Assembly (NCBI GenBank): GCA_003221005.1
Contig: QHTZ01000012.1
Location: forward strand, 1-11,276
Reading direction: 5' to 3'
DNA length: 11,276 bases
Source of the DNA: Gemmatimonadota bacterium
Lineage (GTDB): Bacteria; Gemmatimonadota; Gemmatimonadetes; Gemmatimonadales; GWC2-71-9
Program-made: the position numbers and the translations under genes
In this document: positions 1-11,276 of the stretch, piece after piece
How the letters are laid out: every line of letters starts with the position of its first letter
How positions within the stretch are numbered: position 1 is the stretch's first letter
Notes under the pieces: model-generated
What the model was told of the DNA's origin: nothing
The model's input: the letters and a program-made list of their open reading frames with translations, nothing else
Database searches by the model: none

Positions 1-2
1 AT

Positions 3-800
3 GAGCAGGTCGCGCTCGTTCACACGGCCGACTACATGCGGAAGATCCAGACGGGGGCGCTGAGCCTCGAGGACCAGCTGGTGCTCGAGGTCCCCTTCTC
101 CGCCGCGCTACGCGAGGCCGCGTGGATCTGCGCGGGCGGGACGACGCTCGCCGCACGCCTGGCGCTGGAGCGAGGGGTTGCGGTGCATCTCGGAGGCGGC
201 TTTCACCACGCCTTCCCCGATCACGGCGAGGGGTTTTGCCTCATCAACGACGTCGCGATCGCGATTCGCGCGCTGCAACGCGAGGGAATCGTGCGGCGGG
301 CGGCGGTCGTCGATCTCGACGTCCATCACGGCAACGGGACGGCCGCAATCTTCCGGGACGATCCCCACGTCCTCACCTTCTCGATGCACCAGGAGCGCAA
401 CTACCCGGCTGCCAAGCCGCCGAGCGGCCTGGACTTGGGGTTGGAGGACGGGACCGGAGACGCAGAGTATCTCGCCCTGCTGGAGCAGCACCTGCCGGAC
501 ATCCTCGGCCGCCACCGGCCCGATCTCGTCCTCTATCTCGCGGGAGCCGATCCGTACCGGTTCGACCAGCTCGGCGGTCTAGGTCTCAGCCTCGAGGGGC
601 TGCGCCAGCGGGACGAGCTGGTGTTCCGACAGGCGGCGAGCGCGGGCGTGGCCGTGGCCGTCTGCCTCGCAGGCGGCTACGCGCTACGCACTGAGGACAC
701 GGTGGAGATCCATTGCAACACAGTCAGGACCGCAAGGCAGGCGCCGGCCCGCGCGCCTCAGGCGGACCGGCACCCGCACCGCGCGTCGAGCGGGCAGTAG
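3..800 (+). CDS. Histone deacetylase / AcuC-AphA family Zn-dependent deacetylase, 5'-truncated by the window edge
   Basis: Motifs GGGFHHA, GFC, DLDVHHGNG, SMH, AGADP and GGY are present. The frame is open upstream of Met at 36 (EQVALVHTADY, the conserved 'VH..dY' segment), so the true start is before the window. Confidence 0.93.
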   Translation, partial: EQVALVHTADYMRKIQTGALSLEDQLVLEVPFSAALREAAWICAGGTTLAARLALERGVAVHLGGGFHHAFPDHGEGFCLINDVAIAIRALQREGIVRRAAVVDLDVHHGNGTAAIFRDDPHVLTFSMHQERNYPAAKPPSGLDLGLEDGTGDAEYLALLEQHLPDILGRHRPDLVLYLAGADPYRFDQLGGLGLSLEGLRQRDELVFRQAASAGVAVAVCLAGGYALRTEDTVEIHCNTVRTARQAPARAPQADRHPHRASSGQ

Positions 801-2080
801 TTCGGCATCCACGCCGGCTCGCATGCGGGTAGTTGGTCGGGCGTCGCGCCACCCTCGAGCAGCGCCAGCCGCCGGTCCGCTTCGGCGCTGATGTCCGCGA
901 GGCTCCGGAAGTACACGTCGTACACCATGAACTTGTCGTCCTTCACGGCCTCGTAGTAGATCACCACCCGCCCCGTCTGGTGACCGCTCAGGGCGCACTC
1001 GAATGCGATGCGGTCGAAGTAGTAAGGGAACTCCTCCACCAGCTGTGACCGGTCGACCATCTTGGTCTTGCGCGTGGCGCGGAAGATCGTGGGAACGCCG
1101 CGGAACGTTCCCACCTTGCCTCTGAGACTGCGGAGCGACACGGGGATGCGGGCGAACGCGCCGGGCACGCCGTACCACAGGGCATCCTTGAGCGCGTCGC
1201 CGAAGCCGAGCCGTTCCATGCCCGCGAGCGCGGCGTCGAGGTCCGGGTCTGCTTCCTCGGGCTGCGCCTCCGCGACGGCCTGGCGTTCGATCACGGCCCT
1301 TCTCGGAAACACGAGATCGTTCAGGCGGAACTCTCGACCCCGCGGGGGGGCGTCGGTGAGGAGCGCCGTCATGGCGGCGACGCGCTCGCCGTTCTCGACG
1401 ATGCGCACCGCGGCCGCCGGTACGACGCGGCCCAACGGATCGGCCGTGCCGCAGCCGCACACCGCGCGGTAATCGCACCGCAGGTCGAACCATTCGCAGC
1501 GTGGCAGGGCGCTCGGGTCGTTGCGGGCGAGCGCGTCGCGGAACAGATCGCGGCGCCGCACCATCTCCCGCTCGACCTCCCTCAGATTCCGGAAATGGAG
1601 GTCGAACCCCTTGAGGGCACCGGGGCGGCCGTACAGCGCGCGCTTGTACACGAACAGCCGGCCCTCGTCGCGGCCCGTCATGGTGCAGTACATACCCAGC
1701 TGATCGATGTAGCTGGGCCGGGCCGCGGCGGTGCCGGCGGGGAGCGAGGCGGTCGTCTTGAGCTCCACGGGGATGTCGTCGTAGATGTCGATCTTGCCTA
1801 CGATCCCCTGGAACTCGACGAACTGCTCCACGAACTCCTCGGTCGAGACCGCGCGGCCGAACACTTCGTGGAACCCGGTCCCGGCGAGCATCGCCTGCTT
1901 ACGCTCGGGGTCGGGCTGGATGTCGGGCCGGGTGCGCTGGAAGAAAGCCTGGCGCGGGTTGACGAGGTCGGTGACGGAGAGGCGGCGGCGCCGGCCCTGG
2001 CGGGTCAGCGCCGCACTGAGCTCGTCCTTGATGGTGCGGTTGGCGTCGAGCCCCGAGACGACGCGTTCAGCGAGGGACAT
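758..2080 (-). CDS. Tandem Cas4-like / PD-(D/E)XK (RecB-like) nuclease, 440 aa: N-terminal domain apparently active, C-terminal copy degenerate
   Basis: Domain 1 has SVTDLVNPRQ, GTGFH71, E85, GKID98, VE106LK108T, Q127LGMY131 and C195-x6-C202-x5-C208-G-C210. Domain 2 aligns by eye along its length and ends C420-x8-C429-x5-C435-G-C437. Confidence 0.85.
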   Translation of the reverse strand: MSLAERVVSGLDANRTIKDELSAALTRQGRRRRLSVTDLVNPRQAFFQRTRPDIQPDPERKQAMLAGTGFHEVFGRAVSTEEFVEQFVEFQGIVGKIDIYDDIPVELKTTASLPAGTAAARPSYIDQLGMYCTMTGRDEGRLFVYKRALYGRPGALKGFDLHFRNLREVEREMVRRRDLFRDALARNDPSALPRCEWFDLRCDYRAVCGCGTADPLGRVVPAAAVRIVENGERVAAMTALLTDAPPRGREFRLNDLVFPRRAVIERQAVAEAQPEEADPDLDAALAGMERLGFGDALKDALWYGVPGAFARIPVSLRSLRGKVGTFRGVPTIFRATRKTKMVDRSQLVEEFPYYFDRIAFECALSGHQTGRVVIYYEAVKDDKFMVYDVYFRSLADISAEADRRLALLEGGATPDQLPACEPAWMPNYCPLDARCGCRSA

Positions 2081-2087
2081 GTGAGGA

Positions 2088-2093
2088 ATGTTA
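2088..2093 (-). promoter_or_regulatory. Putative -10 hexamer (TAACAT) for a leaderless transcript of the Cas4-like gene
   Basis: Minus strand reads TAACAT-tcctcac-ATG: a TAnnnT hexamer 7 nt before the start codon, with no Shine-Dalgarno. Confidence 0.45.
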
Positions 2094-2129
2094 CAGCGGC
2101 GGCGTGAGGGAAGAGCGGCTCGCGAACGC

Positions 2130-2142
2130 TAAGTCGTTGATT
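2130..2142 (-). promoter_or_regulatory. Match to the IHF consensus in the divergent intergenic region
   Basis: Minus strand AATCAA-CGAC-TTA matches WATCAANNNNTTR exactly. Confidence 0.4.
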
Positions 2143-2211
2143 CACAAGAGCGCGTTACACGCGGCGCGGGCGTCGCATCTTCACCACACACCCCAACGGA
2201 GGCGCCTCTAT

Positions 2212-2760
2212 ATGCGCGACTCCGCACCTCAGAGACTCACCGAACGACATCAAGCAATCCTGCGCCAAGCAAGCGCGGCCCTGCGGGGGCGACTCGTGAC
2301 GTTGTGGCGTATGGCGAGCGGCTGTGCGGTGGCCGAGGCAGCGAGCGAGTCGGATCGGCCGCTGGACATGATCGACATCGACGTAGCCGGAACCTTGCAG
2401 ACGTGGGGCCGGGCGGTACGTGAGGGGAGTCTGTGGATCGTGTGCTGTCTCGCCCCGGGCCGCTGGCACGTGGCCCCGGTGCGGCGCGACGTGCCCGCGC
2501 CGCCGCCCCATGGTGTCGAGCGGCGCAGTCCAGAGCGACTGATTCTCGAGCTCGCTGGCCTGCTGCTCGGCGCGCTGGACCGCGTCTGGGCGGTGGCCGA
2601 CCAGGCGACGGTGTTTCTGTGCACGGCGCTCGCCGTGATCGAAGTGTCTCTGGGGCGCGTGCAGGAGGCGCGCGGCCTGAGCACCGCGACGCGGGCGCAC
2701 CTGCTCGCCGATCTCGCGATCATCTCCCAGGCGATCGAGAGCGCGTTAGGCGCGGCGTAG
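2212..2760 (+). CDS. Hypothetical protein, about 182 aa
   Basis: GGAGG at 2198-2202 lies 9 nt before ATG 2212, a better start than GTG 2104. Composition is protein-like and the stop falls 4 nt from the convergent ogt stop. No family recognised. Confidence 0.65.
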   Translation: MRDSAPQRLTERHQAILRQASAALRGRLVTLWRMASGCAVAEAASESDRPLDMIDIDVAGTLQTWGRAVREGSLWIVCCLAPGRWHVAPVRRDVPAPPPHGVERRSPERLILELAGLLLGALDRVWAVADQATVFLCTALAVIEVSLGRVQEARGLSTATRAHLLADLAIISQAIESALGAA

Positions 2761-2764
2761 ACGC

Positions 2765-3289
2765 TCAGCGGAGCGCCAGCAACGCACCTTCGTGCTCCAG
2801 GAGCCAGCGCTTGCGGTCCAAGCCGCCGCCGAAGCCGGTCAACTCGCCGCGCGCGCCGATCACGCGGTGGCAGGGGACGATGATCGGGATGGGGTTCTTG
2901 CCGTTCGCTGCGCCGACCGCACGCGTCGCTCGCACGTCGCCCAGGCGGCGCGCCAGCTCGCCGTAGCTCACGGTCGTGCCGTAGGGGATGGCGCGGAGGG
3001 CGGCCCACACCTGGCGCTGGAAATCGGTCCCCGGCGGGTCGAGGGCCAGTTCGAACGTCGTGCGCGCGCGGGCGAAGTATTCGCTCAATTGCTGGCGGGC
3101 AAGAGCGAGTACGTCCGCACCTGTCCCGCTCTCCCCATCGTCGTCCTTTCCCCCTGGCCCCCTCTCCACGACGTGGAGAGGGGGGACGTGGCGGGAAGTC
3201 GGGAAATAGACGCCCGTGAGCGCCGTCTCCGAGGCCGTGAGAACAAGCTCGCCCAGCGGGCTTGGGAAGCGAGCGAACGTCGTGGGCAT
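2765..3289 (-). CDS. ogt: Methylated-DNA--protein-cysteine methyltransferase
   Basis: SPLGEL, GTDFQRQVWAALRAIPYG, SYGELA, RAVGAANGKNP and the active-site PCHRV, followed by GFGGGL..KRWLL.HE. Confidence 0.95.
   Translation of the reverse strand: MPTTFARFPSPLGELVLTASETALTGVYFPTSRHVPPLHVVERGPGGKDDDGESGTGADVLALARQQLSEYFARARTTFELALDPPGTDFQRQVWAALRAIPYGTTVSYGELARRLGDVRATRAVGAANGKNPIPIIVPCHRVIGARGELTGFGGGLDRKRWLLEHEGALLALR
3158..3184. repeat. Perfect palindrome (REP-like) inside ogt
   Basis: CCCCCTCTCCACG-A-CGTGGAGAGGGGG: 13-bp perfect inverted repeat around a 1-nt centre. Confidence 0.7.
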
Positions 3290-3291
3290 GG

Positions 3292-4483
3292 TCAGCGGTC
3301 TCCGTCCCGGAGCTCCTCCAGCCGACGCTCGAGGAACCGCCGCTCCGGCTCCTGCCGCGCGAGCTCGAGGGCTCGCTCATAGGACGCGCGGGCTTCAGCC
3401 GTTCGCCGCAGACGCCGGCACAGGTCGGCCCGTGCCGAGTGCGCCAGATGATAGTCTGCGAGATCGCCGCGCGCGAGAATGCCGTCGATGAGGGCGAGCC
3501 CGGCCTCCGGCCCCGTACAGACCCACGATCTGGGCCCAGTCGGTCGCCGCAGCCGTGGACGCCTCGGCGTGCACCGCCGCGATCGCTGCCTGGAGTGTGT
3601 AGGGACCGAACCGGCGCGACTCCAGGGCTCGCTGCACCAACTCCCTCCCCTCCGCGATCTGGTCCCGATTCCAGAGCGAGCGGTCCTGATCGCCCAGCAG
3701 GACCAGCGCGCCTTCGGGAGTCGTACGCGCGGCGCGCCGCGACTCGTGCAGCAGCATCAACGCCAGGAGCCCCCCTGCCTCGGGCTCCGGCAGCAACTCG
3801 AACAGGAGGCGCCCCAGACGAATCGCCTCACCCGAGAGATCGCGCCGCGTGAGCGACTCCCCCGACGACGCGGAATACCCCTCGTTGAACACGAGGTAAA
3901 CCACGCGCAGTACGGTGTCGAGCCGCTCCGGTAGGTCGGCCACGGACGGCACCTGGTAGGGAATTCGCGCATCGCGGATCTTTGACTTGGCGCGCACGAT
4001 GCGCTGGGCCACCGTGGGAGCCGCCGTGAGGAAGGCATGCGCGATCTCCTCGGTCGTGAGGCCGCACACCTCGCGCAGCGTCAGCGCCACCTGAGCGTCC
4101 GGCGGCAGGGCGGGATGACAGCACGTGAAGATCAGCCGCAGCCGGTCATCCTCGACGCCCTCATCGTCCCACACGGCAGTCTCCGGGACGTCGGACTCGA
4201 GCCGCTCGGCGATCCCCGCCAGCGACTCGTCGAATCGCGCCCGCCGGCGCATGCCATCGATGGCCTTGAAACGCCCCGTCGACACCAGCCACGCCCGCGG
4301 GTTCGTCGGCACGCCGTCCCGTGGCCACTGCTCCACGGCCGCAGCAAAGGCATCTTGCAGCGCCTCCTCGGCCAGGTCGAAGTCGCCGAGCAGGCGGATC
4401 AGGGTGGCGAGGACCCGGCGCGAGTCCGAGCGATAGACGGCATCCACCATCTCGCGCGCCCGCTCGGCCGACTCCTCGCTCAT
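3292..4483 (-). pseudogene. ECF sigma factor of ECF42 type (C-terminal TPR-like extension), disrupted by deletion plus frameshift at about 3514
   Basis: Sigma2 (DLAEEALQDAF, WL...R.KAID..RR), DDRLRLIFTCCHPAL, sigma4 and YLVFNEGY run to ...DWAQIVGLY (aa 323). The family-type tail GPEAGLALIDGILARGDLADYHLAHSARADLCRRL...ERRFLERRLEEL continues in another frame (3513 to TGA at 3292), ending 2 nt before the ogt ATG. Confidence 0.85.
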
Positions 4484-4503
4484 CCGTGTGGTGCCCCACC
4501 CGG

Positions 4504-4860
4504 CTACGGCTGGGGAACCTCCGCGATTGGCCTCACCTCGACGCTGCCGTGGCGGGCGCCAGGATTCCGCGAGGCGACCTGGATGGCCTCATTCAAGTCC
4601 CTGGCTTCGATCAGATAGTATCCGCCGAGCTGCTCCTTGGTCTCGGCGAAGGGGCCGTCGGTCGTGGAAAGTTTGCCATTGCGCACCCGCACCGTGGTGG
4701 CGCTCTGCGTCGGCTGCAGCCGGTTCGACCCGACGTAGTGACCGCTCTGCTTGATGCTGTTGGTGAACTCCATGTACTCACCCATCCACTTGTCCGCTTC
4801 GACCTTCGGCAGCTTCGGCCATTGGGTCTCGTCTGAGTAGATCAGGCACAGGTATTTCAT
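4504..4860 (-). CDS. YciI family / DGPF-domain protein, 118 aa
   Basis: MKYLCLIY start with GGAGG(GGAG) upstream at 4865-4873. Contains TTDGPFAETKEQLGGYYLIEA and VEVRP. DGPF genes are the typical upstream neighbours of ECF42 sigma factors. Confidence 0.93.
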   Translation of the reverse strand: MKYLCLIYSDETQWPKLPKVEADKWMGEYMEFTNSIKQSGHYVGSNRLQPTQSATTVRVRNGKLSTTDGPFAETKEQLGGYYLIEARDLNEAIQVASRNPGARHGSVEVRPIAEVPQP

Positions 4861-4906
4861 CGCTCTCCCCTCCGAATCGTCGTCGATTGGCTGTGAACAC
4901 GAGGTA

Positions 4907-4933
4907 GTCGTTCTGGGGAAGCCAAAATCGACA
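4907..4933 (-). promoter_or_regulatory. ECF42-type promoter of the yciI-sigma-ogt operon (probably autoregulatory)
   Basis: Minus strand TGTCGA-ttttggcttccccagaa(17 nt)-CGAC, 46 nt upstream of the yciI ATG. Fits the ECF42 consensus as I recall it (-35 TGTCGA, -10 CG[A/T]C). Confidence 0.75.
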
Positions 4934-5073
4934 ACGACCAAAGTAACGTTCGTCGCCGCGAGCGAGTTCGCTACTGAACGGCGGCGCCCGCATACCTGTC
5001 CAAACGTCCAATACCGCTCCCGCATCTCAGCCCGCCATCTTCCCGCCAGAACCCTGAACCGAGGCAGTGCTTC

Positions 5074-5979
5074 ATGGATACGCTACAGATGTTGTCCGAC
5101 AACTTGGCTGATGCGGTGGACCACGCCGCCGCCTGGGTCGTGGCCGTCAACGCCCGGCCGCGCATCGCCGCGAGCGGCGTGCATTGGAGGCCGGGCGTCG
5201 TCGTCACCACCCATCACACCGTGCGACGGGAAGAGGACATCACGGTGACGCTCAGCGACGGTCGCACCGTGCCCGCTACCCTCGCAGGGCGTGACGCCGC
5301 CACCGATCTGGCAGTGCTCAGGATCGATGGATCCGGCGTACCGCCGGCCAGCTTCGCCGAGCCGGGCTCGCTCAAGGTGGGGCACGTGGTGCTCCAGGTG
5401 GGCCGCACGGGGAGTGCCGGGCACTCGGCGAGCTTCGGCGTTGTTAGCACGATCGTGGGGCCGTGGCGTACGTGGCGCGGGGCCGAGATCGACCAGCTGT
5501 TTCAGCTCGACCTCGCCATTCACGATGGTTTCTCCGGCAGTCCGCTCGTGGACTCCCAGGGCAACGTGGTGGGACTCAATACGTCGGGACTGCTGCGGGG
5601 CACCCCGGCAGCGCTGCCGCTCTCGGTGGTGAACCGCGTGATGGATGCGTTGCTCACCAAGGGCCGCATTGCGCGCGGGTACCTCGGGGTCGGCCTGCAG
5701 CCGGTCGAGGTGCCGTCCGCGCTGGGCGGCAAGCTCGACCCGCCGCGGCGCACCGGCCTCATCGTACTCGCGGTCGACGCGGACAGCCCCGGTGGGCGCG
5801 GCGGGCTGCAGCTCAGCGACGTCATCGTCGCGGTCGACCACCAGTCGGTGGCCGACGTGCGCGACCTGCTCGCACTCCTGGCGCCGGAACGGGTCGGCTC
5901 GACCGTAGCCGTGGAAGTGCTCCGCGGCGGCACTCCGCACACCATTCGCGTCACCATCGCCGAGCGTCCGACGCGATGA
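5074..5979 (+). CDS. S1C/HtrA-like serine protease with one C-terminal PDZ domain, no signal peptide
   Basis: Triad segments TTHH, ATDLAVL and GFSGSPL. PDZ begins RGYLGVGLQPV, with DVIVAVD and VEVLRGG. Confidence 0.9.
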   Translation: MDTLQMLSDNLADAVDHAAAWVVAVNARPRIAASGVHWRPGVVVTTHHTVRREEDITVTLSDGRTVPATLAGRDAATDLAVLRIDGSGVPPASFAEPGSLKVGHVVLQVGRTGSAGHSASFGVVSTIVGPWRTWRGAEIDQLFQLDLAIHDGFSGSPLVDSQGNVVGLNTSGLLRGTPAALPLSVVNRVMDALLTKGRIARGYLGVGLQPVEVPSALGGKLDPPRRTGLIVLAVDADSPGGRGGLQLSDVIVAVDHQSVADVRDLLALLAPERVGSTVAVEVLRGGTPHTIRVTIAERPTR

Positions 5980-6539
5980 CGCTCGCGGACCAGCTCGCGG
6001 CCGTAGTTGCGCAGCTGCGTCGCTCCACCGTGCAAGTGCGCGGACGCGGGGCTGCGGCAGGCAGCGGCTCCGGGATCGTATGGAAGCCGGGCGTGATCGT
6101 GACCAACGCGCACGTGGCGACCAAGGGGTTCACCCTCGTCGAGCCCGCGGACGGGTCGGTCCGTGAAGCGCGGGTCGTGGCGAGCGATCCGCGCCGGGAC
6201 CTCGCCGTGTTGGGGGTCGATACGACCGGTCTCACCCCGGCAGACATTGCCCCCGCGGGCACGCTGCGGGTAGGTTCGCTCGTGCTCGCCGTCGGCAACC
6301 CATTCGGCCTCAGCGGGGCCGTTACGACGGGGATCGTGCACAAGCTCTCGGAGCGACGCCGTCGCACACGCCTCATCCTCGCGGACGTCCGACTCCTGCC
6401 TGGTAACTCCGGAGGACCCCTGGGCGACGCGGCAGGGCGCGTGGTGGGTGTCAACGCCATGATCCTGCGCGGTCTCGCGGCAGCGATTCCCAGCGACGTC
6501 GTCGAACGATTCGTCCGCGAGGCCCAGCTCGCGGCGTGA
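5976..6539 (+). CDS. Trypsin-like (S1C) serine protease without PDZ, 187 aa
   Basis: ATG 5976 overlaps the upstream TGA (ATGA). Motifs GSGIVW, VTNAHV, DLAVL, AVGNPFG and PGNSGGPL. The track start at 5463 is over-extended. Confidence 0.9.
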   Translation: MTLADQLAAVVAQLRRSTVQVRGRGAAAGSGSGIVWKPGVIVTNAHVATKGFTLVEPADGSVREARVVASDPRRDLAVLGVDTTGLTPADIAPAGTLRVGSLVLAVGNPFGLSGAVTTGIVHKLSERRRRTRLILADVRLLPGNSGGPLGDAAGRVVGVNAMILRGLAAAIPSDVVERFVREAQLAA

Positions 6540-7174
6540 TTCGCGTCTTGGTTGTGACCGACTCGGCGACGGCGGGGGCCAGGCTCGCTGCCCGGCTGGC
6601 GGGCGACGACCGGCTTGAGGTCGCGGGACACGCGCTGTCGCCGGGTGATCTCGAGCGGCTCGTCGGCATTGGCAGCGCCGACGTCGTTGTCGCGGCAGTG
6701 AATCCGGACGACGAGCGCGCGGCAGGCGCGCTGCTCGCGCTGGCGGCCGAAAGCACGGCGCCGCCACTCGTGGCGGTCGTGGACGACGAGGCCGGACCCT
6801 GGACGAGCGAGGCGCTACAGGCAGGGGTGCGAGCCGTGCTGCCGCTCGACGTGAGCGCCGCGGAGCTCTGCGCCGCCGTCGCAGCTGCCGCGGCAGGCTT
6901 CGTGGTCACGCGGCCCGAGGACGCGGCAGCCGGGGGTCGAGCGGGGCGCCCCCGGCAAGCGCTTCCGGCACTGGGCCCGCTCCTCACGCCGCGCGAGCTC
7001 GAGGTGCTGGGCCTGCTGGCCGAGGGTCTCGGCAACAAGGGCATCGCAGCACGTCTCGCCATTAGCGAGCGCACCGTGAAATTTCACGTAGGAGCGATCT
7101 TCGAGAAGCTCGGGGTCACGAGCCGCACCGAGGCCGTGACCGCGGGCTTGCGCCGCGGGCTTATCCTGCTGTAG
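6536..7174 (+). CDS. NarL/LuxR-family response-regulator-like transcription factor with an atypical receiver
   Basis: GTGA overlap with the upstream stop. LuxR HTH: LTPRELEVLGLLAEGLGNKGIAARLAISERTVKFHVGAIFEKLGVTSRTEAV. N-terminal REC-like fold. Confidence 0.92.
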   Translation: MIRVLVVTDSATAGARLAARLAGDDRLEVAGHALSPGDLERLVGIGSADVVVAAVNPDDERAAGALLALAAESTAPPLVAVVDDEAGPWTSEALQAGVRAVLPLDVSAAELCAAVAAAAAGFVVTRPEDAAAGGRAGRPRQALPALGPLLTPRELEVLGLLAEGLGNKGIAARLAISERTVKFHVGAIFEKLGVTSRTEAVTAGLRRGLILL

Positions 7175-7395
7175 GGGGGGCCGCACCCCCTGCACCTCCC
7201 CGCTGAATCAACCCAAGGAACAATTACGTATCGCGAACGGGTTGTTCGGAGACCCTTGAGGGACCCGAATGCCGTCCAAGAAACCCGTCGCCAGTGACAC
7301 GACATCATCCCAACCGGGTGCCTTGCCACCAACGCTGCTTCGGGATATGTTCGGGTTCCTGTTACTCCAATAAATCCGGCGATGATCTGCTCCCC

Positions 7396-7422
7396 TGTCG
7401 ATTTGAACCAGCCGCGTTCGAC
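7396..7422 (+). promoter_or_regulatory. Second ECF42-type promoter, upstream of the RND-TolC gene
   Basis: TGTCGA-tttgaaccagccgcgtt(17 nt)-CGAC, 62 nt before ATG 7485. Elements and spacing are the same as at 4907-4933. Confidence 0.7.
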
Positions 7423-7484
7423 GACTTGTGGGAGTCGAACACTTACCGCTTAGCGCCCGATCGGGACGAGACCAGGAGAGCCTG

Positions 7485-10400
7485 ATGCGATTCGTAGAGA
7501 CGTTTATCCGCCGCCCCGTGCTCGCCAGCATGGTGAGCCTGGGCCTCGTCCTCGTCGGCGCGATCGGGTATTCGCGCCTGCCGGTGCGCGAATTCCCCGA
7601 CGCCGACGCGCCCATCGTCTCTGTCACCGTGCAGCTACCGGGCGCGAGCCCGCAGGTGGTCGAGTCCTCGGTGACCGACGTGCTCGAGGAGGAGCTCTCC
7701 AGCGTCGAGGGGCTGCGCACGATGACCAGCGCCAGCCAGGAACAGATCAGCACGATCACCCTCGAGTTCAACCTGGATCGCGGCATCGAATCAGCGGCTC
7801 AGGACGTCCGTGACAAGGTGGCGCGGGCGCGCGGGCGCCTGCCGGAGGACATCGAGGAGCCGGTGGTGGCGAAGCAGGAGGCGGACGCCTTCCCGATCAT
7901 GTTCCTGGCTCTGACGTCGCAGAGCTACGGCCTGATGGAGCTGTCGGACATCGCCGACCGCCAGGTCAAGCCGCGGCTGCAGACGATTCCGGGCGTATCG
8001 GGCGCCCCCATTTACGGCGAGCGGCGCTTTGCCATGCGGGTGTGGCTCTCGCCGAGCGAGCTAGCCGCGCGCGGGCTCACGGCCCAGGACGTCGAGCAGG
8101 CGATCAAGACGCGCAGCGTCGAAGTTCCGGCCGGACGGATCGAATCGAATCGACGTGAGTTTTCGGTCCGCTACCTGGGCGAGATGCGCACGCCGTCCGA
8201 GTTCGCGGACCTGACGGTGTCAGGCACGGGCGCACAGCTCGTCAAGCTCGGCGACGTCGCGCGCGTGGAGCCCGGGCCGAAGGACGAGCGGTCGGTCACG
8301 CGTTACTCGCAGCAGCCGGGCGTCTTCATCGGGGTGGTGCGGCAGTCGAAAGGGAACGTGCTCGACGTGGCGCGCGCGGTGCACACCGAGCTGCCCGCGA
8401 TACAGCGGTCGCTCCCGAGCGGCGTGCAGCTGTCCATGGCGTTCGACGCGTCCGTGTTCGTGCAGCGCTCGATCCAGGAGGCGCGCGAGACCCTGTTGCT
8501 GACTGCTGGACTCGTCATCCTCATCATCTTCCTGTTCCTCGGCACGCTCCGCGCCACGGTGATTCCGGCGCTTGCCATCCCAGTCTCGATCATCGCGACG
8601 TTCGCCGTACTGTCGGTGCTCGGGTATTCGGTGAATTCGCTGACGTTGTTGGGCTTGATCCTGGCGATCGGCATCGTGGTGGACGACGCGATCATCGTGC
8701 TGGAGAACGCTTACCGGCACCAGGAAGAGCTGCGCCAGGACCCAGAGCGCGCGGCCATCGACGGGACGCACGAGATCGCGACGGCGGTGATCGCTACGAC
8801 CGTGGCGCTGATCGCCGTGTTCTCCCCCCTGCTCTTCCTCACGGGTGCCACCGGCCGGCTGTTCAACGAGTTCGGGGCTGCGGTGGGAGGATCGGTGCTG
8901 GTCTCGGGGATCGTGGCCCTGACGCTGACCCCGATGCTGTCTGGCAAGATCCTGCGGGTAGCGGGCGGAGAATCGCGGTTCCGTCGCGCCGTCGCCGCGG
9001 TGCTGCGCACCGTCACGACGCGCTATGGCAATGCGCTGGCAGGCGCGCTCAAGCGCCCGTTCCTGGTAATCGCCGGCGCGGCGGGCCTCACGCTCGCGGG
9101 CGCCGCGTTGTTCTTCGCGCTCCAGCGGGAGTTTGTGCCGCCCGAGGATCGTGGCTTCTTCTTCACGTTCGTCGTCGCGCCCGAGGGCGCGACCGTCGCC
9201 TACACCGATGAGTACGTGCGCCAGATCGAGGCGATCGTCCATCACACCAAGGACGTGCGGTCGTCGTTCGCGGTGATCGGGTTCGATGGGCCGCCCAATA
9301 TCGGCGTCGTCGGCCCGATCCTGGAGGACTGGGACCGGCGGCACCGCTCCGCGCAGGACATCATCGCGGAAGTGCAGCCGCAGTTCTACTTCGGCGTGCC
9401 CGGCGTGTTCGCGTTCGCCACCAATCCGCCCGCGTTCGGCGGCTTCAATCCACCGGTGCAGTTCGTGGTGAAGAACCGGGACTTCGACGCCCTGGTGCGC
9501 GGCATGGATACGCTGGTCGCGCGGGCGCGCACGATTCCCGGACTCCTGAACGTAGACACGGACCTGCGCGTGACTAAGCCGGAGCTGGTCGTGACGATGG
9601 ACCGGGACCGCGCCGAGGACCTCGGCGTGCCGGCGCGCGACATCGCATTGACGCTGCAGACGCTCTTGGGAGGCCGCGACGTGTCGCGCTTCACGTCGGA
9701 CAACAAGCTGTATGACGTGATGCTGCGGCTCGATCCCGCGGAGCGCGCCACGCCGTCCGACATCAGCGGCCTTCAAGTGCGCGGGCGCAACGGCACCCTG
9801 GTGCCGCTCGACGCGGTGACCCGCACCCAGGAGCGCATCGGGCCGCGCCAGCTCAACCACCACGACCGGGTGCGGTCGTTCACGCTCTCGGCCAGCATGG
9901 CGCCCGGGTTCACACTGGGCCAGGCTCTGGACTCGTTGAACGCGGCGGCCGCCGCGGTGCTCCCCCCGGGGAGCACGGTGGACCTGGCGGGCGAATCGCG
10001 CGAGTTTCGCGAGAGCGGCAGCACGTTGTACTTCGCGTTCGCGCTGGCGCTGATCTTCGTGTTCATGGTGCTGGCGGCGCAGTACGAGTCGCTGGTGCAC
10101 CCCTTTACGGTCCTCCTGGCCGTGCCCCTGGGCGTGACCGGCGCCCTGGCGGCCCTGTGGGTGGCGCGCTCGACCCTCAACGTGTACAGCCAGGTCGGGA
10201 TGATCCTGCTCATCGGACTCGTGGCGAAGAACTCGATCCTGCTCGTGACGTACGCCAATGGTCTGCGTGAGCGAGGCCGCGACGCCGTGGCGGCGATGCT
10301 CGAGGCCGGCCGGATCCGGCTGCGGCCGATTCTCATGACGTCGGTCGCCACGGTGTTCGGCGCGCTCCCCATCGCGCTCGGCCTCGGCGCGGGCGCCGGC

Positions 10401-11276
10401 AGCCGGCGGCCGCTCGGCTACGTCATCATCGGCGGCATGATCGTCTCGACGCTGATCACCCTGTTCCTCGTGCCGGCGGTGTTCGTCGTGCTGGAGCGGC
10501 TGCGGAGCCGGCGTCCCGCGGCGCTCACCCAGACGGCCGACGCGCTCCCAGCGCTGCCCGCCGTGCTGCTGGCGCTCGCGCTCGGGGCCGCACTCCCGTC
10601 GCGCCTCGCGTCGCAGCAGGTACCCGTGGTGACGCTGGTGGAGGCGCGGCGCCTGGCAGTCGTGGTGGATCCGACCGCCGTGGCCGCCCTCGCCGACGTC
10701 TCAACGGCGTCGTGGGAGCGGCGCGCCGCGCTCGCGGACCTGCTCACGCCCCATCTCACCGCGGCGAGCAGCTACGTGAAGTTTTCGGACCCGTTCTTCA
10801 ACTTCGGCACGGGCGCCATTAGCCCCACGGCGTCGAGCGCGACCGTGGAGGCGCGTTACACGCTCTTTGGCGCTGGGAAGTTCGCAGAGCTGGGGCGCTC
10901 GCGCGCCGCGGTGGCGAGCGCCGAGGCCAACGAAACGGCCGCGCGGCTGCGCACTGCGCTGGCGGCGGACGGCGCGTACTATGCGGTCCTCGCGGAAGCT
11001 GACCTGTCCCGCGTGGCCGCCGACCGGCTGCGGCGCGCGACGGAGCAGCTGGGCGTGGCGCGGGTGCGCGTCCAGGCTGGCGCCACCATCGCGACAGATT
11101 CGTTACAGTTGCTGCTCGAAGTGAATCGCGCGCGGCTGGATATCCTGCGCCGCGATTCGGCACTGGCGGTATCCCGGGTCCGGCTGGGCCGCCAGGTCGG
11201 GGTGGAGGGCCCGGTGGATGCCGCCCGGCTCGACACGACCGCGCCCCCGGCGCTGCCGATCACGCTCGCTGCGGCC
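7485..11276 (+). CDS. AcrB/AcrD/AcrF-family RND permease fused in frame to a TolC-family outer-membrane factor; 3'-truncated, at least 1264 aa
   Basis: AGGAG at 7474-7478, then MRFVETFIRRPVLA...LPVREFPD...PGASPQVVESSVT, GIVVDD(400,401)AIIVLEN, GLVAK(915)NSIL, RLRPILMTS and TLFLVPAVF. I read no stop from 10440 to the window end; the ORF track lists no closed plus-strand ORF in this frame, consistent with one open frame. From 10614 the sequence is OEP-like (VTLVEARRLA; AYYAVLAEADLSRVA; ARVRVQAGATIATDSLQ). Confidence 0.9.
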   Translation, partial: MRFVETFIRRPVLASMVSLGLVLVGAIGYSRLPVREFPDADAPIVSVTVQLPGASPQVVESSVTDVLEEELSSVEGLRTMTSASQEQISTITLEFNLDRGIESAAQDVRDKVARARGRLPEDIEEPVVAKQEADAFPIMFLALTSQSYGLMELSDIADRQVKPRLQTIPGVSGAPIYGERRFAMRVWLSPSELAARGLTAQDVEQAIKTRSVEVPAGRIESNRREFSVRYLGEMRTPSEFADLTVSGTGAQLVKLGDVARVEPGPKDERSVTRYSQQPGVFIGVVRQSKGNVLDVARAVHTELPAIQRSLPSGVQLSMAFDASVFVQRSIQEARETLLLTAGLVILIIFLFLGTLRATVIPALAIPVSIIATFAVLSVLGYSVNSLTLLGLILAIGIVVDDAIIVLENAYRHQEELRQDPERAAIDGTHEIATAVIATTVALIAVFSPLLFLTGATGRLFNEFGAAVGGSVLVSGIVALTLTPMLSGKILRVAGGESRFRRAVAAVLRTVTTRYGNALAGALKRPFLVIAGAAGLTLAGAALFFALQREFVPPEDRGFFFTFVVAPEGATVAYTDEYVRQIEAIVHHTKDVRSSFAVIGFDGPPNIGVVGPILEDWDRRHRSAQDIIAEVQPQFYFGVPGVFAFATNPPAFGGFNPPVQFVVKNRDFDALVRGMDTLVARARTIPGLLNVDTDLRVTKPELVVTMDRDRAEDLGVPARDIALTLQTLLGGRDVSRFTSDNKLYDVMLRLDPAERATPSDISGLQVRGRNGTLVPLDAVTRTQERIGPRQLNHHDRVRSFTLSASMAPGFTLGQALDSLNAAAAAVLPPGSTVDLAGESREFRESGSTLYFAFALALIFVFMVLAAQYESLVHPFTVLLAVPLGVTGALAALWVARSTLNVYSQVGMILLIGLVAKNSILLVTYANGLRERGRDAVAAMLEAGRIRLRPILMTSVATVFGALPIALGLGAGAGSRRPLGYVIIGGMIVSTLITLFLVPAVFVVLERLRSRRPAALTQTADALPALPAVLLALALGAALPSRLASQQVPVVTLVEARRLAVVVDPTAVAALADVSTASWERRAALADLLTPHLTAASSYVKFSDPFFNFGTGAISPTASSATVEARYTLFGAGKFAELGRSRAAVASAEANETAARLRTALAADGAYYAVLAEADLSRVAADRLRRATEQLGVARVRVQAGATIATDSLQLLLEVNRARLDILRRDSALAVSRVRLGRQVGVEGPVDAARLDTTAPPALPITLAAA

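Follow-up and report, generated by a model that had tools for sequence, protein, structure and literature searches.

Gene organisation and internal repeat

The DNA considered here, hereafter the window, is a stretch of 11,276 nucleotides from a Gemmatimonadota bacterium (GenBank assembly GCA_003221005.1, contig QHTZ01000012.1, positions 1 to 11,276 of the forward strand), with a G+C content of 65-73%. At 758..2080 its reverse strand carries the gene under study (stop codon at 758-760), which encodes a two-domain Cas4/RecB-like protein of 440 amino acids, P0001; a preliminary description, drawn from the sequence alone, had presented it as a stand-alone 'double Cas4'. The reading frame is backed over the full ORF by the pattern of G+C at third codon positions (GC-frame plot), and the N-terminus (MSLAERVVSGLDANRT...) agrees with that of the homologues. 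The gene is present in single copy in its own genome and likewise in the other genomes that carry it.

All the features of the gene lie on the reverse strand. The protein opens with an N-terminal segment (aa 1-29, 1994..2080) containing a DANRT.KDEL motif that is invariant in the close clade, followed by domain 1 (aa 30-215, 1436..1993), of the RecB/Cas4-like PD-(D/E)XK type and predicted to be catalytically competent. An inter-domain segment homologous to aa 1-29 (aa 216-247, 1340..1435) then leads to domain 2 (aa 248-440, 761..1339), a paralogue of domain 1 that lacks the acidic residues of the catalytic site.

Relatives were collected through an exhaustive profile search, yielding 677 representatives at E ≤ 1e-3 (136 at E ≤ 1e-30), and through a word-indexed search, yielding 264 relatives, the best 120 of which were nearly all 436-461 aa long. 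Among the best 150 of the 677 representatives, 93 were full-length (416-501 aa) and 57 were fragments of 93-376 aa, kept outside the residue analysis. Unless otherwise indicated, residue counts refer to an alignment of 82 sequences, comprising P0001 and 81 of the 93 full-length rows; the 12 remaining full-length rows, 10 of them reported as two matched stretches and 2 shorter at the N-terminus, were added later. The two-domain architecture occurred in 94 of 94 proteins (the 93 full-length rows and P0001). Homologues lacking the second domain, a prospect raised in the preliminary description, were thus not encountered among these 93, both halves being present in all.

The two ranges initially proposed as homologous, correctly converted as aa 34-210 (nt 1451-1981) and aa 251-437 (nt 770-1330), matched each other in BLASTP (E 6e-15, 25% identity over 190 columns), with all five pairs of aligned segments located at the residues given. 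Comparison of domain profiles by hhalign confirmed this homology, with E 9e-24 for profiles of 19 close homologues and E 2e-31 for those of the 82 diverse sequences (probability 99.6-99.9%). When the protein was cut into halves, profile alignment of aa 4-213 and aa 220-440 extended across 205 columns (E 2.2e-33, probability 99.9%), so that the ~30 residues at the N-terminus and those between the domains form a further pair of copies, and the repeat is longer than previously noticed. The N-terminal segment, which aligns with the inter-domain segment, accordingly belongs to repeat unit 1, and the 440 residues are wholly accounted for by two units of ~220 aa, with nothing else. The length of the inter-domain region is tightly constrained, the distance from C210 to D255 being 43-50 residues in 82/82 members.

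Conservation of the two halves

The catalytic D...(D/E)xK motif is present in half 1 and absent from half 2. In half 1, six residues are invariant (82/82): E85 (1826..1828); D98, the predicted metal-binding Asp of the VGKID motif (1787..1789); E106 and K108, forming the ExK catalytic motif E106-L-K108 (1757..1765); and Q127 and Y131 of the QxxxY motif Q127-LGM-Y131 (1688..1702), typical of RecB-type nucleases. H71, within a GTGFH motif (1868..1870), is found in 78/82. H71 aligns with the His of the Cas4 protein 4r5q, D98 with the Cas4 Asp, and the ExK motif with the EIK/EYK of Cas4. Domain 1 therefore retains the RecB/Cas4 set, as had been claimed.

The corresponding positions of half 2 are altered throughout the family. 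The column of D98 is variable or gapped, that of E106 is occupied by L/I/V in 72/82, and those of Q127 and Y131 show E/R instead; the column of K108 is still basic (R/K in 74/82). The loss of the acidic residues in domain 2, already noted in P0001, extends to all 82 aligned sequences, and the 12 full-length members added later display the same pattern of residues kept in half 1 and lost in half 2 (12/12). Other positions persist: half 2 retains P259-R260 of the N-terminal PR motif, P330 (the counterpart of P104, retained in 80/82), a basic amino acid at position 334 and the Cys cluster, and it is conserved, basic and non-acidic. The dN/dS ratios, computed over 91 Gemmatimonadales pairs, were 0.115 in half 1 and 0.131 in half 2, compared with 0.27 in the linker and 0.11 in the N-terminal segment. 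Half 2 is not a decaying copy; purifying selection acts on it as strongly as on half 1.

Cysteine clusters

Each half terminates with a cluster of four cysteines, namely C195-x6-C202-x5-C208-x-C210 in domain 1 (1451..1498) and C420-x8-C429-x5-C435-x-C437 in domain 2 (770..823). In half 1, each Cys is present in 81-82 of the 82 members and the prevailing spacing is C-x6-C-x7-C-x-C (69/82), the shorter middle spacing x5 being shared by 11/82, P0001 among them. In half 2, where C-x7-C-x5-C-x-C prevails (69/82), C420, C429 and C435 occur in 82/82 and C437 in 51/82, the alternatives being D, E or S. The initial statement that domain 2 keeps all four terminal cysteines is thus true of P0001, but it does not extend to the whole family.

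The Cas4 family is defined by one N-terminal and three C-terminal cysteines holding a Fe-S cluster, the 'iron staple', according to the section of the literature that deals with them (PMC12094033, section 8). The first of these ligands, the Cys of the Cas4 'C-P-R' motif, is aligned to N41 in half 1 (N/D in the family) and to F258 in half 2 (Y/F in the family), and any Cys in the N-terminal part was found in 3/82 members for half 1 and 7/82 for half 2. In the alignment, C195, C202 and C208 of half 1 fall on the CxxCx5C triad of Cas4, and the extra Cys lies two residues beyond the last canonical Cas4 Cys. With the N-terminal Cys replaced and a terminal one added, all four ligands fall within the C-terminal ~16 residues of each half, and the one-plus-three arrangement of Cas4 is found in neither half. 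The extra last Cys may stand in for the lost N-terminal ligand, and each half would hold a metal cluster, probably [4Fe-4S].

Relationship to RecB and Cas4 families

Half 1 alone matched PF12705 (PDDEXK_1) with E 5e-4 and 20.4-20.5 bits, without reaching the gathering cut-off of 22 bits. The same family was matched at E ≤ 0.1 by 11/25 half-1 sequences from related loci and, among distant full-length relatives, at E ≤ 0.01 by 10/20, of which 5/20 reached the cut-off (22.1-24.2 bits). The half-1 profile also found the Cas4 structure 4r5q in the PDB (E 0.0035), with the His, Asp, ExK and QxxxY aligned, and hhalign comparison of half 1 with 24 Cas4 sequences gave a probability of 51% and E 1.5e-4 over 157 columns. 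These 24 sequences were Chloroflexota PF01930 matches, drawn from 30 loci after removal of five truncated or long fused frames and of one from the unpublished genome G243. Searches of the PDB with the whole protein sequence returned chance-level matches only, and the Pfam scan detected no helicase, helix-turn-helix (HTH) or other regulatory family on P0001. Taken together, the motif and profile matches identify half 1 as a remote but consistent candidate RecB/Cas4-like nuclease.

P0001 is not a Cas4 in the strict sense, because it has no PF01930 match at E ≤ 1, its PF12705 match remains below the cut-off, the cysteine arrangement of Cas4 is lacking and no cas1 was detected in the genome. The term 'double Cas4' is therefore apt in that an active and an inactivated paralogous nuclease-like domain share one chain, but not as a designation of family. 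In the 93.9%-complete genome of the window, neither cas1 (PF01867) nor PF01930 had a match, and no other PF12705 match was found at E ≤ 0.01, the gene's own half 1 being sub-threshold.

Distribution of the family

A scan of genome collections identified 40 loci in Gemmatimonadales, Armatimonadota, Chloroflexota/Dehalococcoidia and unclassified bacteria, with 42-86% identity and 52-57% across phyla. One distant representative was named as from a Thermoplasmata archaeon, and a language-model atlas, used as a lead only, contained two clusters (96 and 64 members) dominated by Thermoplasmatota. A quick IQ-TREE run on the 82 sequences, used for picking clades only, separated the bacterial clade of the window (15 rows), a 49-row clade including the Thermoplasmata protein, and two smaller clades. 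Together with the archaeal loci described below, these data show that the family reaches archaea, a spread that the preliminary description had contemplated.

Within bacteria the gene is sparsely distributed. It was detected in 4/201 genomes sampled over Gemmatimonadota, a count that includes the window's genome and the unpublished genome G181, and in 2/201 Chloroflexota genomes; it was carried by 3/96 genomes of the window's own family and by 1/2 other genomes of its own genus. In that congener (G138), the locus presented no match to the flanking genes of the window. The bacterial copies appear to have been acquired sporadically by horizontal transfer. The copy of G181 (C237:12742-14064) presents one in-frame TAA inside the match and is possibly a pseudogene. 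The gene was also present in 20 soil-metagenome sequencing runs from 15 studies, with no RNA runs among the listed runs that hold it.

No relative was found by tblastn in 50,697 phage records and 72,556 plasmids, or in viral contigs with the alignments of clades A, B and C, the latter being pattern-seeded scans of limited sensitivity. Longer fused forms were not found either, with no relatives of 878-2505 aa, which is weak evidence. When the half-1 profile was used to look for single-domain relatives, it gave 96 matches, mostly fragments or frameshifted two-domain genes; the short matches P0284 and P0303 still include the start of half 2, and P0293 is 232 aa long. P0338 (255 aa, 38% identity to half 1, matching PF12705) has no N-terminal Cys and ends with a C-terminal C-x4-C-x2-C-x5-C. 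It is a probable single-domain relative, and its sequence may resemble the form that preceded the duplication.

Genomic context

A metagenome scan with the 49-row clade retrieved 80 loci with 66-75% G+C. Their neighbours include the genes for eIF2-gamma, ribosomal protein S6e and an archaeal phosphopantothenate synthetase, which identifies the loci as archaeal. A divergent gene for a NadB-like flavoprotein is the upstream neighbour in 36 of the 42 loci with a called upstream neighbour; among 49 loci, the downstream neighbour is a convergent GNAT gene in 28 and a PRPP synthetase gene in 13. The archaeal synteny is fixed and no neighbour suggests an operon partner. The archaeal copy has the appearance of a chromosomal gene inherited vertically within one lineage.

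In Gemmatimonadales, the gene is frequently found close to ogt, encoding O6-alkylguanine-DNA alkyltransferase, which is located no more than 5.1 kb away, on the same strand, in 9/14 loci as well as in the window. Its position varies, being upstream in L001, L004, L011 and the window, and downstream in L003, L006, L007, L009, L010 and L027. In three species the TGA stop codon of the gene and the start of ogt share a 4-nt overlap (ATGA/GTGA; L003 9341-9344, L009 9341-9344, L010 9326-9329), which implies co-transcription and translational coupling with ogt. A tight same-strand array is present in L001 (6526-9323, +), formed by a DinB_2 gene, ogt, an ORF of 145 aa (P0357) and the gene under study; P0357 has a C-terminal hydrophobic stretch and no family match. 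In the window, ogt (2765..3289, reverse strand; PF01035, E 2e-37, and PF02870) lies 685 nt upstream of the gene. The interval contains a divergent hypothetical gene (2209..2760, forward strand) supported by the GC-frame plot, with an uncertain start: a GTG codon first occurs at 2104, and the stretch resembling relatives starts near 2212. This gene has no Pfam or PADLOC match, and tblastx gave 60% amino acid identity to the ORF at 9991-10608 of L001/L004.

The remaining bacterial neighbourhoods vary, and no partner gene is conserved across lineages. In an Armatimonadota locus (L013 1632-4772, +), the gene overlaps a Fic/SoFic-like gene upstream by 8 nt and a gene for an ERCC4-HhH (XPF-type) nuclease downstream by 1 nt, followed by a PIN toxin-antitoxin pair. 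A Gemmatimonadota locus (L037 3377-10612) is a defence-island setting, where the gene is flanked by type I restriction-modification methylase/specificity genes with DUF4268/PDC-S11, and by an IrrE/HTH (RmrA-like) gene. Further neighbours related to defence or toxins comprise, besides the SoFic and PIN genes of L013, AbiEi in L014 and L026, PIN with antitoxins in L016 and L020, DarT with transposases in L024, and a PLD nuclease in L025. No Cas family was found among the 140 ORFs that neighbour the gene in 25 bacterial loci, nor among the archaeal neighbours scanned.

Comparison with known nucleases

Half 1 aligns by motif with Cas4 and Solo-Cas4 proteins such as Pcal_0546 (PDB 4r5q), sharing the His, Asp, ExK, QxxxY and C-terminal Cys triad. 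As with Solo-Cas4, P0001 is encoded away from CRISPR-cas loci and a metal cluster is likely. It differs in having two domains, the second catalytically dead, whereas Cas4 has one, and in lacking a PF01930 match, with a fourth C-terminal Cys in place of the N-terminal one. Solo-Cas4 (that of M. mazei, PMC12501428) is reported to be a high-order oligomer, whereas P0001 is presumably monomeric and pseudo-dimeric.

Among curated families, the best match of half 1 is with the RecB/AddB-type nucleases (PF12705), which have the QxxxY motif and a C-terminal Cys cluster in common with it; unlike these, P0001 has no helicase in cis, and no helicase is conserved in the neighbourhood. The only printed case found of a double Cas4-like arrangement in one polypeptide is ZomB of S. 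pneumoniae ICESp23FST81, described as having two Cas4-like domains with predicted 4Fe-4S clusters behind a UvrD-like helicase (bioRxiv 10.1101/2020.06.16.154153). P0001 lacks the N-terminal SF1 helicase of UvrD-Cas4/ZomB proteins. A helicase-free double Cas4-like protein was not found described in the literature searched, and the terms 'duplicat' and 'tandem' have 0 occurrences in the main text of the Cas4 phylogenomics paper PMC5704561, whose supplements may list such clusters. The earlier impression that the architecture had not been described thus holds for the helicase-free form, but ZomB provides a counterpart with helicase.

The pairing of an active domain with a dead paralogue recalls RecBCD, where the C-terminal domain of RecC has, as reported in PMC1185551, a RecB-type nuclease fold without catalytic residues and a non-catalytic role. 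In RecBCD the active and dead domains reside on separate subunits of a helicase-nuclease, whereas P0001 fuses both within 440 aa, each with a Cys cluster. The dead domain of RecC beside the RecB nuclease offers a precedent, by analogy, for half 2 as a DNA-handling module. Sau3AI and the tandem-repeat archaeal tRNA-splicing endonucleases are also pseudo-dimeric by internal duplication, with one catalytic copy and one structural or DNA-binding copy; they belong to different families, have no metal-cluster motif and provide a functional analogy only.

Proposed function and alternative explanations

The explanation in which we place most, albeit moderate, confidence is that P0001 is a stand-alone, metal-dependent RecB/Cas4-like PD-(D/E)XK nuclease, originated from a ~220-aa unit duplicated in tandem, which would work as a pseudo-dimer within one chain and is most likely involved in DNA repair. 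Half 1 would perform metal-dependent DNA cleavage, and half 2, packed against it, would hold or position DNA (an end, a flap or the second strand) as a second DNA-binding surface. Such a pseudo-dimer would replace the homo-oligomers or partner subunits used by other Cas4/RecB-type nucleases. The biological role is assigned more tentatively to DNA repair or end processing, with damaged or broken DNA as the substrate, because of the linkage and coupling with ogt in Gemmatimonadales, the overlap with the ERCC4/XPF-type gene in Armatimonadota and the housekeeping synteny in archaea.

Several observations weigh against this explanation. The whole protein has no match in Pfam, NCBIfam or PADLOC, remaining below every curated family threshold. 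Half 2 alone has no Pfam match and nothing meaningful in the PDB by sequence profile, and its hhalign probability against the same 24 Cas4 sequences is 1%, so that taken alone it is not detectably Cas4-like. Cas4/PDDEXK_1 profile matches had been anticipated for both halves; remote ones were obtained for half 1 and none for half 2, which is linked to the PD-(D/E)XK fold solely through half 1. Both the packing of the pseudo-dimer and the geometry of the clusters are deduced from the sequence, the Cys clusters could bind Zn instead of Fe-S, and in the M. mazei Solo-Cas4 the cysteines are reported to be dispensable for cleavage (PMC12501428). In the window, a gene on the opposite strand separates ogt from the gene under study, which is consequently monocistronic in this genome and not co-transcribed with ogt. 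The 26 bacterial loci from outside Gemmatimonadales and the 80 archaeal ones all lack a nearby ogt, the linkage being limited to one bacterial order, where it may partly reflect shared ancestry. Lastly, 8/25 bacterial loci scanned have defence or toxin-antitoxin genes no more than three ORFs away and the bacterial distribution is very patchy, which together fit a defence role as well.

The main competitor, which we regard as rather unlikely, is a single-gene anti-phage or anti-plasmid nuclease that moves in defence islands, with half 2 sensing or binding foreign DNA and half 1 degrading it. Its sporadic presence in bacterial genomes (4/201 in Gemmatimonadota and 2/201 in Chloroflexota), the identity of 52-57% maintained across phyla, the lack of shared flanking genes in the congener G138 and the defence-related neighbours in 8/25 loci speak for it. 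On the other hand, the PADLOC-DB 2.0 models of known and candidate defence proteins gave 0 families at E ≤ 1 against P0001, there is neither a conserved partner nor an evident self/non-self module, and the phage, plasmid and viral-contig collections yielded no relatives. The archaeal clade, the largest of the family, occupies a fixed housekeeping locus, and the coupling with ogt in Gemmatimonadales likewise speaks against defence. Between the two roles, the evidence leans to repair in Gemmatimonadales, through ogt, and in archaea, through the housekeeping synteny.

A mobile-element remnant or cargo, that is a phage-type Cas4-like or RecE-type exonuclease serving recombination or replication of the element with no host function, is improbable. 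Viral single-domain PDDEXK_1/Cas4 clusters scored 0.95-0.97 in a language-model feature search, results to be read as leads only, and transposases flank the L024 locus; against this, no relatives were found in the phage, plasmid and viral-contig collections scanned, integrase, replication or structural genes do not recur next to the gene, both halves are under strong purifying selection and the archaeal synteny is stable. We attach still less probability to P0001 being primarily a redox or metal-cluster DNA-binding sensor or regulator with retained nuclease-like motifs. Although each protein has two conserved Cys clusters and the nuclease reading rests on sequence, the invariance of E85, D98, E106, K108, Q127 and Y131 in 82/82 is the signature of a working active site, and no HTH or other regulatory domain is present. 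Finally, a CRISPR-associated Cas4 that selects PAMs and trims prespacers during spacer acquisition, together with a Cas1-Cas2 encoded elsewhere, for which the distant Cas4 similarity of half 1 is the sole argument, can be set aside as practically negligible, given the divergent cysteine arrangement, the lack of cas1 and PF01930 in the 93.9%-complete genome, of an array in the window and of Cas families among the neighbours scanned.

P0001 is best regarded as a RecB/Cas4-like nuclease whose fixed architecture is new and whose ligands are unusually arranged; on present evidence it is no new kind of system, and the preliminary designation as a candidate new system goes too far for a single gene with no partner conserved across lineages. 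Nucleases of the Cas4/RecB type are central to DNA-end processing and to CRISPR adaptation, where they normally operate as oligomers or within helicase-nuclease machines. The family of P0001 represents a compact solution of another kind, in which an active and a dead copy are joined as a fixed tandem within a single chain of 440 aa, with putative metal-cluster ligands arranged unlike the canonical 'iron staple'. It has hundreds of members, almost all of them with two domains, yet it bears no annotation in Pfam, NCBIfam or PADLOC. If the coupling with ogt is functional, the protein would add to alkylation-damage repair a nuclease step that has so far gone unstudied; should the defence reading be true, it would constitute a new single-gene system; and with either role it is a tractable target for structural work and simple biochemistry. 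As a speculation that we consider unlikely, these proteins might be undescribed 'one-chain heterodimer' Fe-S nucleases, in which the dead half, with a relocated four-Cys cluster of its own, is a lesion or end sensor gating the active half; they might be a core maintenance factor of one Thermoplasmatota lineage that was passed to soil bacteria and there, where coupled with Ogt, might define a new way of excising alkylation damage or complexes of alkylated Ogt with DNA.

Other features of the window

No CRISPR repeat array was found in the window and no Cas family among its ORFs, in agreement with the initial observation that it contains neither an array nor cas1/cas2. A consensus scan of 600-3500 for promoters and terminators and an Rfam scan of the window returned nothing. 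On the 3' side of the gene lies a convergent gene of the histone-deacetylase family (3..800, forward strand; PF00850, E 2e-57), open at its 5' end, the 3' end of which overlaps that of the gene under study by 43 nt.

Beyond ogt are an ECF sigma factor gene and a YCII-domain gene. The former (Sigma70_r2/r4 and DUF6596; 3310-4483, reverse strand) shows an apparent frameshift near 3513: compared with the homologue in G173 (L155), 71 nt are missing and the C-terminal sequence goes on in another frame to ~3310, as would result from either a pseudogene or an assembly error. Tandem genes for trypsin-like serine proteases follow on the forward strand (5074-7174), the first with a PDZ domain (5074-5979) and the second with a Trypsin_2 match at ~6066-6452 in the ORF 5463-6539, succeeded by a GerE/LuxR-type regulator (6536-7174). 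The last part of the window (7428-11276, forward strand) is occupied by a single frame of 1283+ aa, open at its 3' end, in which a complete AcrB-type RND pump (ACR_tran, 22-1022) is followed in frame by an OEP domain of the outer-membrane-factor type (1097-1254), corresponding either to a fusion of the pump with an outer membrane factor (OMF) or to a missing stop in high-GC sequence.

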